From a virus (Duplodnaviria; Caudoviricetes), in the IMG/VR virus record IMGVR_UViG_3300031760_000033, positions 1-64,000 of that record: DNA of 64,000 nucleotides; one strand, 5' to 3'. Positions 7,628 through 63,998 of this stretch are shown here, piece by piece (within the stretch, counting starts at the first letter, position 1; each line of letters begins with the position of its first letter). Under the pieces are notes generated by a model, which saw only the letters and a list, made by a program, of their open reading frames with translations, made no database searches and was not told the origin of the DNA. The position numbers and the translations under genes were made by a program.

Positions 7628-8032
7628 ATGGCATACATCGACAGGGACGAACTTCAAGACTTTCCTTTTACCGGCAAGTTCTACAAATCGGAGATAGACA
7701 AGACGAAGCCTTTGACCGAACAGGTCGAGACAGAGGTTACTATCGCCGAGGTAGTCTGCGATATTCAGGAGGAGTCAAATTTCCGCGCCACGGCGACCGC
7801 GAAAGCTGTCTATGGCGTGTACGTTCCTTTCGATAGCGACACCACGGAAATCCCGGTCCAGCGAGGACACATGTTCAAGGGCTACCAGTACGGGTTGCTT
7901 GTTTCCGGCAAGGTAATAGGCGTGTTCCCGTCTCAGCTGGGGCCTTTCGACAACTATACCGAGCGAGGGAGCGACGTGGTGCCGCACCGTTGCCGTGGTT
8001 ATCTTGCAAGAGTGGAGGCTACCGACGTATGA
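7628..8032 (+). CDS. Putative head closure protein
   Basis: 134 aa, beta-rich; synteny. Confidence 0.45.
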   Translation: MAYIDRDELQDFPFTGKFYKSEIDKTKPLTEQVETEVTIAEVVCDIQEESNFRATATAKAVYGVYVPFDSDTTEIPVQRGHMFKGYQYGLLVSGKVIGVFPSQLGPFDNYTERGSDVVPHRCRGYLARVEATDV

Positions 8033-8781
8033 GCAAGTATCAATATGGTGGTATCTATTGCTGCATACCTCTTGGGTATCTGTATGACGAGAGTTTGGTC
8101 TCGTCCGTCAGATGGCGTCTTCGCAAAACCCTAGGAGTTACAATCAAGGGCCTCACAAACGAGCAATTAAACAAACTTATTCGTGAAACGCTGGTTAAAT
8201 GGATAAGAGGGCTTATGTCTGGTAGTAAAATACCGAATTACGCCTCTTTGACAAAAGCGGCAGACCGGAGAGAGGAGAGGTTGATTGCAAAGCAGAACGC
8301 CTTGGTAAATCAAGGCAAAAATGATGCAGACATCAATACTCAAATCAACAAATCCATTGAAAGGTACGGGGAGTTGAGGTCGATAATCGAAGAGGTGAAT
8401 AACTCAATCGGATTCGGCATCTACCATAACAATCTCCTCCTTTCAAATTCTGTTGGTACGCCGGCGGCCCACAATGAATACGCCAGATTGGGGAATATCC
8501 GCGATTTCCTTTTGCACAACAAGAGTAAGTTGCCGATAGACCCGAAAGGATGGACTGTCGTTTTGGTCGTTGCTCACTATGCGGCGGCCCGTTTTGAAGC
8601 AAAAGGAGCTTATCCTGACAGGAGATACAAAGGTTTCAATAAGAGAGTTTTGTATGCGATGGTTTGGAATATAGCAAACGCATTGCGCGAAATGACAGGA
8701 AGAAAACACAGTGGCAATTTGAGATATGGATATATTCTTTCCAGAACTGGATATGAAGGTCAGATATTCAATGTAATATGA
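8029..8781 (+). CDS. Putative neck / tail completion protein
   Basis: ATGA overlaps with both neighbours; basic protein; synteny. Confidence 0.4.
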   Translation: MSKYQYGGIYCCIPLGYLYDESLVSSVRWRLRKTLGVTIKGLTNEQLNKLIRETLVKWIRGLMSGSKIPNYASLTKAADRREERLIAKQNALVNQGKNDADINTQINKSIERYGELRSIIEEVNNSIGFGIYHNNLLLSNSVGTPAAHNEYARLGNIRDFLLHNKSKLPIDPKGWTVVLVVAHYAAARFEAKGAYPDRRYKGFNKRVLYAMVWNIANALREMTGRKHSGNLRYGYILSRTGYEGQIFNVI

Positions 8782-35973: not shown

Positions 35974-36261
35974 TTAACCATTAAGAATTTCCATCAAGTC
36001 TTTGTAGTCTTTTGCCAGCTTGCCTTTCCCTTTTATTTTGGGCGTGGAGTGCTGGAGCCTATAGCTGATGTTCCGGGCAGTCATACTAAACTCTTTTGCT
36101 ATAGTTACAATCTTCATGTGCAGCACATTGCGGTACATATAGATTACCATGTCTTTTGCTATATTGTCTGGGTAGTTCTGGTTGAATTTGGCCAGTATAT
36201 CTTTGTATCTTACATTGTAGTAAGCCTCTATGGTCCTAACTATGTCTTCTTGTATAATCAC
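35974..36261 (-). CDS. DnaA domain IV-like HTH protein
   Basis: IVRTIEAYYNV..DIL..AKDMVIYM..IAKEF..RNI; GTG start downstream of the promoter. Confidence 0.55.
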   Translation of the reverse strand: MIIQEDIVRTIEAYYNVRYKDILAKFNQNYPDNIAKDMVIYMYRNVLHMKIVTIAKEFSMTARNISYRLQHSTPKIKGKGKLAKDYKDLMEILNG

Positions 36262-36279
36262 AGGTGTCGAAATTTGGTG

Positions 36280-36287
36280 CAAAGATA
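36280..36287 (-). promoter_or_regulatory. Bacteroidota -7 promoter element
   Basis: TATCTTTG on - strand (TGCGTATCTTTGCACC). Confidence 0.65.
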
Positions 36288-36399
36288 CGCAAATATCTTG
36301 AAACATGAAAAGATTTTTTCATCAATATTTGCTAATATTTTCTATAGTAGTGATTTAGTGCGAGTAATGTATTGCGTAGTATTTGGTGATATTCGTTAG

Positions 36400-36407
36400 T
36401 ATCTTTG
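36400..36407 (+). promoter_or_regulatory. Bacteroidota -7 promoter element
   Basis: TATCTTTG 16 nt before the lone + strand gene at 36424. Confidence 0.65.
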
Positions 36408-36423
36408 CAAAAACGATTGAGAT

Positions 36424-36807
36424 ATGATAGCACGGGATGTTATTTTGCATGATTACGCTTGGGTAATAACCCTTTTCTTGGACTGCGACACCGACGATGC
36501 GGAGAAGCTGGACGAGTTGCTGTCGGACTACGACCTGACAGAGGAGTTTGTGGAGAAGGTCGGCTGCGGGTATAAAAATATTCACCTTGTCCGGTACAAC
36601 TACGAACAAGGTGAGAGTGTGATTGTTGTTTCCAAGACCACGGATGAGGATGAGTTGCTTGCCATATTGCAGCGCTGTCTTGTTAATACTGCCATTGATA
36701 TGGCGACGTTATTGGGGATGCCGGTTTCCGACATGGTGCCTGATGTGGTGGCTAGGGTGTCGGTCCATACATCCCCAATCGTCATGCCATTGCTTAACCC
36801 TGAATAG
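36424..36807 (+). CDS. Paralog of the HExxH peptidase at 63250-63666, lacking the zinc motif
   Basis: By-eye alignment over its full length; HEVFH is replaced by RCLVN. Confidence 0.65.
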   Translation: MIARDVILHDYAWVITLFLDCDTDDAEKLDELLSDYDLTEEFVEKVGCGYKNIHLVRYNYEQGESVIVVSKTTDEDELLAILQRCLVNTAIDMATLLGMPVSDMVPDVVARVSVHTSPIVMPLLNPE

Positions 36808-37084
36808 GCAGCTTCTTCATCTTGCGGATGACGTCCTTTGAGAACTTGGCGTGGGGCGCATAGTGAGCCGGCAGGATGATGGCCTGTTTCTTGCTGATGT
36901 TCTGGCCAATCTTCTCGGCGCGTTTCTTCGGGGCCAGAGTGAACAGGCCACGGATGTAGATTGCGTTACCTTTGCAGAGGTTCTCGCGGATGACGTTGAT
37001 AGCTTCGTCGAGGACGACGCGGGTTGCGGTTTTTTCGACGCCGGTGCGCTGGCTGACGGCATCAATGATTTCTTGCTTTGTCAT
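36794..37084 (-). CDS. HU/IHF-family DNA-binding protein
   Basis: MTKQEIIDAVSQRTG..IRGLFTLAPKKRAEKIGQNI..PHAKFSK. Confidence 0.9.
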   Translation of the reverse strand: MTKQEIIDAVSQRTGVEKTATRVVLDEAINVIRENLCKGNAIYIRGLFTLAPKKRAEKIGQNISKKQAIILPAHYAPHAKFSKDVIRKMKKLPIQG

Positions 37085-37111
37085 AATGCTTGAAATTTGT
37101 TGGTGAATAAA

Positions 37112-60399: not shown

Positions 60400-60538
60400 A
60401 GGTCTGAAATTTTGGTTACAAAATTAGTGATTATTTCCGGATGATGAAAAAACCTTTTCACCATTATCAATTACAATGTTGTATATGTTATTGAATTATA
60501 GCGTAAAATATTCAATAGTATTGAGTATTGATTGTTAG

Positions 60539-60546
60539 TACCTTTG
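60539..60546 (+). promoter_or_regulatory. Bacteroidota -7 promoter element
   Basis: TACCTTTG upstream of the 60597 operon. Confidence 0.6.
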
Positions 60547-60596: not shown

Positions 60597-61550
60597 ATGA
60601 GCGAAACTATCGTAGTTCCCGATAACGGGAGCAACATGAACAACGCATGGCCCTTGCTGGCTATGAACAACGGTGGGTTCGGTGGTCTTGGCAACGGCCT
60701 TGGTGCCGGTGTCGTCGGCTTTATCCTTGGCGCCCTCATCAACGGTAACGGAAATGGACTGTTTGGTAACGGCGGGAATAACGCCGGTGCCGCCGCCGCC
60801 TCTCTTGGCGCACAGGCTACCGCCCTGAACAACACCGACCTCTTGATGAACGCCATCACGAGCAGCGGTGAACGCCAGCATGAGGCGGTCCAGACACTCA
60901 GCACGATGCTCGGTCAGGACTTCAACCTCGTGAACAGCGGCGTCCAGACCGTACAGACATCACTTGCCACCATTGCCGCCAATCAGGGCATGAATGTCAT
61001 GCAGGTCATCAATGCCATCCAGAGTGGCAATACGGCTCTCCAGAGCCAGCTTTGCGAGTGCTGCTGCAATATGAAGCAGCTTGTCACTGAGCAGGGCTAC
61101 CAAGGTCAGCTCCGCACTCTCGAACAGACTGCCGCTATGAACAACGGCTTCGCCGGCGTAAACACCAACATCGCCGCGACCAAGGCCGCACAGGAGCTTG
61201 CCGACTGCAAGCAGACTTACGCACTCACGGACACCATGAACAACCATTACATCGCGCTTGACAATAAGCTCGACGCTATGGAATCTGGACGTAAGGACCG
61301 CGAGATTACGGCCTTGACTGCCAAAATCGCGCAGCTGGAGTCGCAGAACTTCACCACCGCCGCTCTCGGTCAGGCTGTCGCGCCTATCAACGCACAGCTT
61401 GCAGCCCTTGCCCGTGAAGTTGACACCATCAAGTGCAACCAGCTTCCGACGGTCAACGTACAGTGGCCTCAGCTTACCGCCGTCAACACCACTCCTTATG
61501 TGAATGGTGGCTTCTACGGCAACGGTTGGGGCAATGGCCTTTACTTCTAA
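60597..61550 (+). CDS. Gly/Asn-rich protein with CCC motif and coiled coil
   Basis: 317 aa; hydrophobic GxxxG segment, LCECCCN, heptad repeats; biased codons. Confidence 0.8.
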   Translation: MSETIVVPDNGSNMNNAWPLLAMNNGGFGGLGNGLGAGVVGFILGALINGNGNGLFGNGGNNAGAAAASLGAQATALNNTDLLMNAITSSGERQHEAVQTLSTMLGQDFNLVNSGVQTVQTSLATIAANQGMNVMQVINAIQSGNTALQSQLCECCCNMKQLVTEQGYQGQLRTLEQTAAMNNGFAGVNTNIAATKAAQELADCKQTYALTDTMNNHYIALDNKLDAMESGRKDREITALTAKIAQLESQNFTTAALGQAVAPINAQLAALAREVDTIKCNQLPTVNVQWPQLTAVNTTPYVNGGFYGNGWGNGLYF

Positions 61551-61568
61551 TTAGGAAAGGAGTAAGAA

Positions 61569-61907
61569 ATGAACAATCCATTCAGTAATATCACTACGAA
61601 TGTCAACGGGATTCCGTACCTGTCGAGCACCAACATCACTGTTACTGACACTGCTGTTGACATCGCTCTTGGATTCCGTCGCATCCAGCCTGTCGGACAT
61701 CTGACGGTACGGATTGCCTCGTCCATCCCTGACGGAACCACAGGCACATTGCCAGTGACGCTGACCCTCAATGGCACCAGCCGTGCCTTGACGTTCTTCA
61801 ACGGAACGCCTGTGACGGCTGCCGACCTTACGGGAACCGGCGTGATTACCGTGTTTAACGACCGCTTCAACGGCATCTTGCAGCTGACGTCGCCGCTCAC
61901 GGCTTAA
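61569..61907 (+). CDS. Hypothetical beta-rich protein
   Basis: 112 aa in operon. Confidence 0.7.
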   Translation: MNNPFSNITTNVNGIPYLSSTNITVTDTAVDIALGFRRIQPVGHLTVRIASSIPDGTTGTLPVTLTLNGTSRALTFFNGTPVTAADLTGTGVITVFNDRFNGILQLTSPLTA

Positions 61908-61939
61908 CAAAAGTTATTAACAATTAAACGAGTAAAAAG

Positions 61940-62470
61940 ATGTTTGGAACACTCAGAGCAGGCTCGCTCCTGTATATCCTTAACAAAGGAGAAAACCCCA
62001 GCCTTACGGTTGGGCAGGTCCTCTCGACGACACCGCCGAGAGCAAAAGTAGGGAACCAGTTTATGCCGAACCCTCTCCAGATGGAGCAGGTTATCGACAT
62101 AACAGTCAAGGTCGGCGACGACACGAAGACATTTTCCAATGTCAATACGGCATTGTCGATTGTCGATACCGGTGCCAACAACTACGTCATATCTGACGAC
62201 AAGACAGCAATCACCAACGAGGTGGAAGCTTATGGAACACTGTCGCAGAACGCATTGAACAGTGTGCCGTACCACAAGAAAGTGGTCGCCGCTTGCAAAC
62301 AGATGATGTTGGAGTTGAACCCCAACTTGCAGAAAGAAGCCGACCGAGACACAAAAATCAGCAACCTTGAAAAAGAACTTGCTGAAATCAAGGGTGGTTT
62401 CTCAGAACTTACGAACTTTCTCAAAGGTGCCCTCGGAACACCTCAAACCTCGTTGATTAAACCTCAGTAA
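61940..62470 (+). CDS. Hypothetical protein with C-terminal coiled coil
   Basis: 176 aa in operon. Confidence 0.7.
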   Translation: MFGTLRAGSLLYILNKGENPSLTVGQVLSTTPPRAKVGNQFMPNPLQMEQVIDITVKVGDDTKTFSNVNTALSIVDTGANNYVISDDKTAITNEVEAYGTLSQNALNSVPYHKKVVAACKQMMLELNPNLQKEADRDTKISNLEKELAEIKGGFSELTNFLKGALGTPQTSLIKPQ

Positions 62471-62472
62471 TT

Positions 62473-62709
62473 ATGGGCTACACAATCATTCACAGAAAAG
62501 ACAAGGAGAAGATGGCCGACATGGTGGAGGACATTCTCTACACCGCCGGTCGCCTGATGTCCTGTGTCGATGAACTCGAAGACTCCAGCATGATGGGTGA
62601 GCGTCGTTACCCGGACGGTATGGGGATGCGTGACGGTGGTCGTATGGGCTACCGTTGGGACGACCCCTACATGATGGGTGAACGCCGTGGCATCGTCAGA
62701 CGTTACTAG
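62473..62709 (+). CDS. Small protein with repeated MMGERR motif
   Basis: 78 aa; followed by a hairpin. Confidence 0.7.
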   Translation: MGYTIIHRKDKEKMADMVEDILYTAGRLMSCVDELEDSSMMGERRYPDGMGMRDGGRMGYRWDDPYMMGERRGIVRRY

Positions 62710-62723
62710 ACGTTCCAAACGCG

Positions 62724-62757
62724 GGGTAGGAGGCTCCGGCCTCCTGCCCTCTTTATT
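62724..62757 (+). terminator. Terminator-like hairpin
   Basis: GGGTAGGAGGC-TCCG-GCCTCCTGCCC then TCTTTATTT. Confidence 0.7.
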
Positions 62758-62824
62758 TGCAGAGTAAATCACGCTGCAAGGCAATTAACAGAGTACCAAT
62801 AACTTTTTATCTTCACAGAAAATC

Positions 62825-63238
62825 ATGGGTAAATCAAAACAACCTCTCGATATGTACGACATCATCCCGGAAGAGCAACGGGCGTACCTGATGAACTACG
62901 GCAAGCACTTCAACGAGAAGATGTGCAAGTTTGCCGTCAGCCTGATGCTGGACCGTAACGGAAAGAAGATTTCGTTGATGAAGAAGGATGACGTTCTCGC
63001 GAAACTCAAAGAGAACGGAGTTACGCTGGAGAACGATGTCATGTGCGACAGCACTTTCGTCTATCACATGGCCCTGAGCGACTTCATGGGAAGCAGCATC
63101 GAGGACGAGAAGCACATCTGTCTCTATGTCAAAGACCTCATCGACGACGAGGACCAGCGGGACGGCTTCATTTTTGCCCGCTTTGTAAGTGACTGCATCA
63201 ACAACGGAGAGCCTATCGATTGGGCCGAAATGCTGTAA
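62825..63238 (+). CDS. Hypothetical acidic protein
   Basis: 137 aa; YLMNYGKHFN..YVKDLIDDED..PIDW. Confidence 0.7.
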   Translation: MGKSKQPLDMYDIIPEEQRAYLMNYGKHFNEKMCKFAVSLMLDRNGKKISLMKKDDVLAKLKENGVTLENDVMCDSTFVYHMALSDFMGSSIEDEKHICLYVKDLIDDEDQRDGFIFARFVSDCINNGEPIDWAEML

Positions 63239-63249
63239 GTGCATAAGTT

Positions 63250-63666
63250 ATGAAAGTCCAGCGCTTATATCTCGGCCCGTACAGATGGCAGATGACCGTG
63301 TTCTACGACACGGCCCCTGAAGACTGCGACACCATCCTGAAATGCCTCGCAGACATCGGATGCGAAAGACGCAAACTCGGACAAGCGGAAGAAAACCTCC
63401 GTGGAGGGGCCAGAAATACCGGCCTGACGTTCTCAAATCGCCAGAATAGGGAAAGTATCGTCGTGCTGTCCGAAAGCTCGTCAGAAGCCGAATTTGCGAA
63501 TACTTGGTTCCATGAGGTCTTCCATGCCGCTGTACACATAGCCGAGGCAGACGGTCTCGGATGTAATGGTGAGCCTGTGGCGTACATCGGAGGCTACATT
63601 GCCATGAGGATGCAGCCACAGGCATCACTCTTCATGTGTTCAAAATGCCACAAATATGAAATGTAG
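63250..63666 (+). CDS. HExxH zinc metallopeptidase-like protein
   Basis: WFHEVFHAAVH..EPVAYIGG, with a candidate third ligand Glu; C-terminal CSKCH. Confidence 0.75.
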   Translation: MKVQRLYLGPYRWQMTVFYDTAPEDCDTILKCLADIGCERRKLGQAEENLRGGARNTGLTFSNRQNRESIVVLSESSSEAEFANTWFHEVFHAAVHIAEADGLGCNGEPVAYIGGYIAMRMQPQASLFMCSKCHKYEM

Positions 63667-63768: not shown

Positions 63769-63900
63769 TGTCGTTATATGACAACATATTGACGCTTCAT
63801 TGTTCCGACCAATGTCGATAACTCCACGTCCGCTATCCCGTCCACCACGGGTGATATTTCTCCTATGAGATTCTGCTTCTGCAAGCCGAATCTCTTTATA
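63769..63900 (-). ncRNA. Putative TnpB omega-RNA (scaffold plus guide)
   Basis: Overlaps the tnpB 3' end; ends GAAGCGTCAA (boundary 63789) followed by TATGTTGTCATATAACGACA; 5' limit is approximate. Confidence 0.55.
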
Positions 63901-63998
63901 TTCACTGCTGCTAGCAAGTCGCGGTCGTTGTGCCGTCCACACTGCGGGCAATCCCACTCTCGGTCTTTTAGTGTCAAGTTTTTATTGATATACCCGCA
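63774..63998 (-). mobile_element. tnpB: IS200/IS605-family TnpB, 3' part (continues beyond the window)
   Basis: [34 protein letters not shown]: zinc finger plus RuvC-III. Confidence 0.9.

Follow-up and report, generated by a model that had tools for sequence, protein, structure and literature searches.

The window analysed here covers the first 64 kb of an IMG/VR virus record that is 75.7 kb long (G000 when taken at its full length; completeness estimate 89%). Its genes fall into two main blocks: a structural block runs on the + strand to ~34 kb, and is followed by a 26-kb early/replication block on the - strand that encodes, among others, an HU-type protein, a DUF3127 SSB-like protein, a DUF1064 resolvase-like protein and an N6 methylase. 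Promoter-like sites of the phage carry the -7 box TAnnTTTG, which we take to be the housekeeping-sigma consensus of the Bacteroidota. Close relatives of ORF-B, the peptidase encoded near the end of the window, were found on three contigs of Bacteroidales metagenome-assembled genomes, in a scan that used a closer alignment of ORF-B relatives. Taken together, the type of -7 box and these relatives indicate that the host of the phage is most likely a Bacteroidales bacterium.

The gene of interest, ORF-A, lies on the + strand within the - strand block. The arrangement around it is as follows:

35974-36306, - strand: gene for a DnaA-domain-IV-like helix-turn-helix (HTH) protein (Pfam Bac_DnaA_C, E 3e-4, under the curated cutoff)
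36377-36407, + strand: predicted cassette-type promoter of ORF-A, consisting of TAGTATT, 16 nt and the -7 box; TATCTTTG (motif match)
36424-36807, + strand: ORF-A, 127 aa, pI 4.2, predicted dead mini-zincin paralog, or pseudoenzyme (homology, lost catalytic residues, selection)
36794-37084, - strand: gene for an HU-type DNA-binding protein (Pfam Bac_DNA_binding, E 4e-18)

An earlier note on this DNA had placed ORF-A at 36424-36807 and a related peptidase gene at 63250-63666, and both reading frames are present as given there. It had also described ORF-A as the only + strand gene in the - strand block. As tested, this holds: the other long + strand reading frames of the block overlap - strand frames, and wherever one member of such an overlapping set has a PHROG match, that member is the - strand frame. 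In the equivalent region of L003, a contig with an ORF-A homolog, one small + strand gene was placed by the gene caller. The HTH gene is divergent from ORF-A, while the HU gene is convergent, and its 3' end overlaps that of ORF-A by 14 nt (36794-36807). The same 14-nt overlap is found in L003 and L004, the proteins of which are only ~75% identical. Downstream of ORF-A on the + strand, no terminator-like site was found.

Comparison with other copies reveals ORF-A to be a real gene under purifying selection. Two observations carry this conclusion: (i) dN/dS against the copy in G001, a complete 85.4-kb relative, is 0.116, and (ii) synonymous sites are saturated between ORF-A and the L003 copy, with the proteins still 75% identical. 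For the same genome pair as in (i), dN/dS is 0.140 for ORF-B and ~0.05 for the neighbouring HU and HTH genes. The ORF-A reading frame is unbroken in all copies, which are 73-97% identical, and 67 columns of the family alignment are invariant. The best-conserved stretch, residues 47-85, covers the two strands that precede the former active-site helix and continues into the start of that helix. In zincins, the region made up of the strands before the active-site helix and the beginning of the helix forms the substrate cleft.

ORF-A is related to ORF-B, the product of the 63250 gene. A BLASTP comparison of the two proteins gives E 2e-8, with 22% identity over 126 residues, and an hhalign comparison of the ORF-A family (6 sequences) with the ORF-B family (94 sequences) gives a probability of 98.4% and E 8.4e-15 over columns 1-102. 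The paralogy proposed in the earlier note is thus borne out by profile alignment, as is the proposal that HExxH has been replaced by RCLVN: BLASTP, hhalign and MAFFT each set HEVFH of ORF-B opposite RCLVN of ORF-A. In the 94-sequence ORF-B family, H88, E89, H92, E108 and Y112 are invariant and C130 is nearly so, a pattern that marks the family as predicted small gluzincin-like metallopeptidases. At these five positions ORF-A has R84, C85, N88, D103 and D107, so that no invariant residue is retained. Both zinc-binding histidines and the catalytic glutamate are therefore gone, and the third-ligand glutamate and the invariant tyrosine have each become aspartate. ORF-A also ends before the C-terminal C-x-x-C of ORF-B (C130 and C133), so that this cysteine pair is lost as well. 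Since HExxH is kept in 150 of the 150 best ORF-B-family representatives, its loss is specific to ORF-A.

From the residues lost, ORF-A is predicted to be unable to bind zinc in the canonical manner, and hence to be a paralog of the 63250 peptidase without catalytic activity. As an enzyme homolog that lacks the catalytic residues and is nevertheless kept by purifying selection, it is a pseudoenzyme. The replaced positions are themselves partly fixed within the ORF-A family: R84, C85 and D107 are invariant, position 103 is D or E, and position 88 varies between N, G and T. An acidic residue is thus retained at position 103, facing E108 of ORF-B, although the zinc histidines have gone. We speculate that the place of the metal may have been taken by R84, which faces D103 and D107.

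ORF-A is slightly closer to the peptidases of two other phages, L013 (27% identity, E 4e-11) and L012 (26.5%, E 4e-9), than to ORF-B of its own genome. In two trees (one quick, one careful) ORF-A forms a single clade whose stem is very long, at 1.7-3.3 substitutions per site, and the attachment point of this clade is weakly supported. ORF-A cannot be placed inside the ORF-B family by these trees, which speak neither for nor against its descent from an L013-type copy.

AlphaFold2 models of ORF-A and ORF-B (pLDDT 96-97) have a common topology of beta-beta-alpha-alpha-beta-beta-alpha-alpha. In BFVD the best neighbour of both models is A0A8S5SM26, with TM scores of 0.91 for ORF-B and 0.86 for ORF-A. 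The structural similarity anticipated in the earlier note is accordingly seen in the topology and in the shared neighbour, but the input alignment for the ORF-A model consisted mostly of ORF-B-family sequences, so the likeness is partly built in by construction. Searches of experimental structures with Foldseek (PDB, no match below E 0.2), VIA-align (48,161 chains, best Z 5.2, on an unrelated protein) and sequence profiles (PDB sequences, nothing below E 0.03) returned no relative, and the ESM Atlas yielded chance-level neighbours only.

Pfam-A hmmscan assigned no family to ORF-A at E <= 1, and neither ORF-A nor ORF-B reached a gathering score. ORF-B matches SprT-like at 13.4 bits, against a cutoff of 25.6, and among the 94 ORF-B-family sequences sub-threshold matches are to M78 (6/94), SprT-like (2/94) and DUF6782 (2/94). 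The ORF-B family resembles the minimal zincins of these three groups—SprT-like (PF10263), Peptidase_M78 ImmA/IrrE (PF06114) and DUF6782 (PF20573)—in having a beta sheet ahead of the HExxH helix; unlike the minimal zincin-like metallopeptidases, ORF-A has no metal site at all. A metallopeptidase domain of polyvalent proteins and ArdC was reportedly described by Iyer and colleagues in 2017. BFVD labels A0A8S5SM26 'PolyVal Metallopeptidase superfamily domain', and this name is the sole pointer to a likeness with MPTase-PolyVal; Pfam-A hmmscan of ORF-A, ORF-B and the ORF-B family gave no such match.

ORF-B is encoded by the last gene of a six-gene cassette, which is laid out as follows:

60516-60546, + strand: predicted promoter of the intact cassette, of the same bipartite type as that of ORF-A (motif match)
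60597-62709, + strand: cassette genes 1-4, encoding a Gly-rich coiled-coil protein (phrog_16490), phrog_31654, phrog_28898 and a 78-aa MGERR-repeat peptide
62825-63238, + strand: cassette gene 5, encoding a DUF7841 protein, immediately 5' of the peptidase gene (Pfam PF25223, E 1.3e-19)
63250-63666, + strand: ORF-B, 138 aa, predicted active-type mini-zincin with HExxH, E108, Y112 and a C-terminal C-x-x-C (sequence)

The order of the cassette genes is conserved in L010, L012, L013, L014 and L016, and the DUF7841 gene directly precedes the peptidase gene in every locus read. In the four loci with readable flanks (L012, L013, L014 and L016) the cassette is oriented opposite to the adjoining genes. 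ORF-B itself matches phrog_1365 weakly, and its family numbers at least 566 clusters (E <= 1e-3, 50%-identity library), among which the longer proteins contain no informative extra domains. A literature search returned nothing on DUF7841 or MPTase-PolyVal. The cassette that ends in ORF-B is a widespread accessory element of gut phages, and the ORF-B family is uncharacterised. Genes of other kinds were observed in and beside cassettes. Directly after the cassette of the present phage, a 398-aa reading frame with a TnpB-like zinc-finger tail (CPQCG) occupies 63774-64000 and continues to position 64970 of the genome (774-1970 on the - strand of L008); it is possibly part of an IS200/IS605-type element beside the present position of the cassette. 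The related 87-kb phage L014 has a gene with a NUMOD4 domain, of the homing-endonuclease type (7982-8626, - strand), between cassette genes 1 and 2, on the opposite strand.

The promoter that the earlier note had assigned to ORF-A near 36400 was recovered: a TAnnTTTG box occupies 36400-36407, 16 nt before the ORF-A ATG, and is conserved in three lineages. It is one half of a bipartite motif, TAGTAYY-N16-YAnnTTTG, that stands before ORF-A and before the cassette; beyond this motif, the region upstream of ORF-A and the cassette leader show no similarity. The motif is rare. Counted as TAGTA-N18-YAnnTTTG, it has exactly two matches in G000 (75.7 kb) and exactly two in G001 (85.4 kb), in each genome one before ORF-A and one before the cassette. 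There is a single match in each of L012, L013, L014, L016 and G003, in every case ahead of the cassette, and one before the ORF-A homolog in each of L003, L004 and L005. Genomes G002 and G004 lack the motif, and the peptidase was not found there either. The other promoter-like sites of the phage differ in having an A/T-rich stretch and 'ttcg' before the box.

The occurrence of one rare promoter motif before both ORF-A and the cassette argues that the two would belong to one regulatory class. The cassette-specific element, TAGTAYY placed 16 nt before the -7 box, in turn predicts a dedicated transcription factor or timing class. A role of the HTH gene next to ORF-A as the regulator of the cassette is not supported: the cassettes of L014 and L016 have no homolog of it at a distance of up to 10 kb, and none is found in 35 kb of G003.

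ORF-A occupies an interval that differs from phage to phage. This slot is defined as the region between homologs of the window genes w35533 and w37112 (36307-37111 in the window), and its contents, with the HTH gene at its left flank, are as follows:

Window, G001 and L003/L004: HTH gene (- strand), ORF-A (+ strand), HU gene (- strand)
L013: HTH gene (- strand), then the entire six-gene cassette (+ strand), with the active-type peptidase last
L012: HTH gene only; the cassette is ~2 kb off
L019/L020 and L028: empty

In L012, L013, L019/L020 and L028 the slot has no HU gene. The position and orientation of ORF-A are those of the last cassette gene in L013. Together with the common rare promoter type, the finding that the same slot holds a whole cassette in L013 strengthens the link that had been proposed between ORF-A and the 60597-63666 operon. 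The slot is, however, a variable hot spot, and so the common position of ORF-A and the L013 cassette could also reflect independent insertion.

ORF-A is uncommon. Among 5.8 billion proteins its homologs make up 5 clusters (73-97% identity); it was found on another IMG/VR contig and on two contigs from metagenomes, with identities of 73% or more throughout, and an annotated phage collection contained no DNA or protein match to it. Both ORF-A and ORF-B are present in each of the two near-complete genomes that carry ORF-A; all ORF-A-bearing genomes are close kin, so this co-occurrence amounts to one observation. Within the DNA examined, ORF-A was not seen in related cassette-bearing phages. The few ORF-A clusters and the cassette phages that lack the gene show that the ORF-A family is confined to one narrow phage clade, and that ORF-A is not a general partner of the enzyme. 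The proposal of a general regulatory pair is weakened correspondingly, with 5 clusters of ORF-A to at least 566 of ORF-B.

The simplest reading of the slot synteny, together with the somewhat closer likeness of ORF-A to the L013 and L012 peptidases, is that ORF-A is the remnant of a second cassette copy. We infer a relic origin, co-expression with the cassette and a binding role, by way of the following steps: (i) the variable slot would once have held a second copy of the cassette next to the HTH gene, as it holds the whole cassette in L013, (ii) genes 1-5 of that copy would have been lost, and its last gene, now ORF-A, kept along with a cassette-type promoter, (iii) ORF-A, having retained this promoter, is expected to be produced along with the intact cassette (60.6-63.7 kb), and (iv) ORF-A would probably bind what the active enzyme recognises but leave it uncut, thereby tuning or blocking that step. 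It would most likely act on the substrate or partner of the active enzyme, and the tightly linked DUF7841 protein is the first candidate. The part of inhibitor, decoy or immunity factor that the earlier note had suggested for ORF-A would likewise be putative. That ORF-A is a maintained, non-catalytic relic of a second cassette copy, co-regulated with the first and a putative non-cleaving binder, is the account that we tentatively adopt, at a little short of even confidence. The more specific claim that ORF-A is a co-regulated pseudo-protease that binds the substrate or partner of the peptidase, putatively setting the timing or extent of its action, we regard as rather unlikely as it stands.

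Other explanations draw on the same observations. ORF-A might have been recruited to a job unrelated to the cassette, for example in an early DNA-handling module, with the promoter alone recalling its origin. Its location inside the early/replication block, among genes for HTH, HU, SSB-like and resolvase proteins, would suit such a role, as would its arrival or persistence with the HU gene (the 14-nt 3' overlap is seen in every ORF-A lineage). The length of its stem branch suggests a burst of change, and ORF-A is much more acidic than ORF-B (pI 4.2 versus 5.8). What a new job does not account for is that ORF-A has kept the cassette-specific promoter, rather than the ordinary type of the neighbouring genes, and that its conserved 47-85 stretch corresponds to the substrate-cleft region of zincins; we consider recruitment of this kind doubtful. 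A direct partnership with ORF-B, in which ORF-A is a pseudoenzyme subunit that activates, positions or stabilises the enzyme rather than competing with it, is a poorer prospect still. Dead and active metalloproteases do form heterodimers (MPN-/MPN+), ORF-A and ORF-B share a fold, their common promoter class means that they are probably co-produced, and both occur in each near-complete genome of the clade. Most cassette-bearing phages, however, have ORF-B and no ORF-A, which implies that ORF-B needs no such partner; moreover, ORF-A lacks the C-terminal cysteine motif of ORF-B.

At the far end of the range, ORF-A could be a functionless, decaying remnant, or its protein might be immaterial and what counts might be convergent transcription into the HU/early operon. 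The loss of the catalytic residues and the C-terminus would be expected of decay, and the 3' overlap with the HU gene, along with the lack of a terminator-like site on the + strand, would be expected of antisense transcription. Either status fits the selection data poorly: dN/dS of ORF-A (0.12) equals that of the active-type enzyme, the frame is intact, and copies at saturated synonymous divergence remain 73-97% identical with 67 invariant columns. We judge both versions very improbable. Among known systems the ORF-B mini-zincin family is the closest to ORF-A, which has in common with it the length class, the topology, profile homology (E 8e-15), the promoter type, and the slot and orientation of the L013 member. 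ORF-A is unlike that family in keeping none of the five invariant residues, in lacking C-x-x-C and an upstream DUF7841 gene, and in standing alone.

Dead paralogs are found beside active proteases in other systems, such as Rpn8/Rpn11 and CSN6/CSN5 (MPN-/MPN+) and the iRhoms. The Clostridioides difficile proteins CspA and CspC, named as pseudoproteases in one report (PMC6464247), are a further case. ORF-A resembles the MPN- proteins, the iRhoms and CspA/CspC in being a predicted catalytically dead paralog under purifying selection, with an active form in the same genome. It differs from them in its unrelated fold, in being phage-encoded and in its restriction to one narrow clade; partners and functions are established only for those other systems.

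New here are the cassette-specific promoter common to ORF-A and the cassette, and the slot synteny with L013. By itself, the dead paralog is a rare, lineage-specific feature, of interest mainly as a probe of cassette function. An inactivated copy that is under selection and carries the cassette promoter would mark the binding surface of the peptidase as important apart from catalysis, and would make ORF-A a ready-made probe for finding the target of the peptidase. If the proposed binding role is correct, ORF-A would act as a natural dominant-negative and offer a first experimental way into the role of the cassette, which is present in very many gut phages.

Two further genes of the early block bear mention beside those described above. 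A third small HExxH protein (FFHELIH, with NEK downstream) is encoded at 40586-40966 on the - strand; the reading frame as listed extends to 41104 from a TTG, and the true start is probably the Met at ~40966. This protein matches phrog_1233 (E 1.5e-7) and is distant from the ORF-B family, to which hhalign relates it at 83% over 44 columns around the metal helix. At 44067-44339, also on the - strand, the 35974 gene has a distant paralog of the same DnaA-domain-IV-like HTH type (21% identity, E 4e-3), which is present in G001 too.
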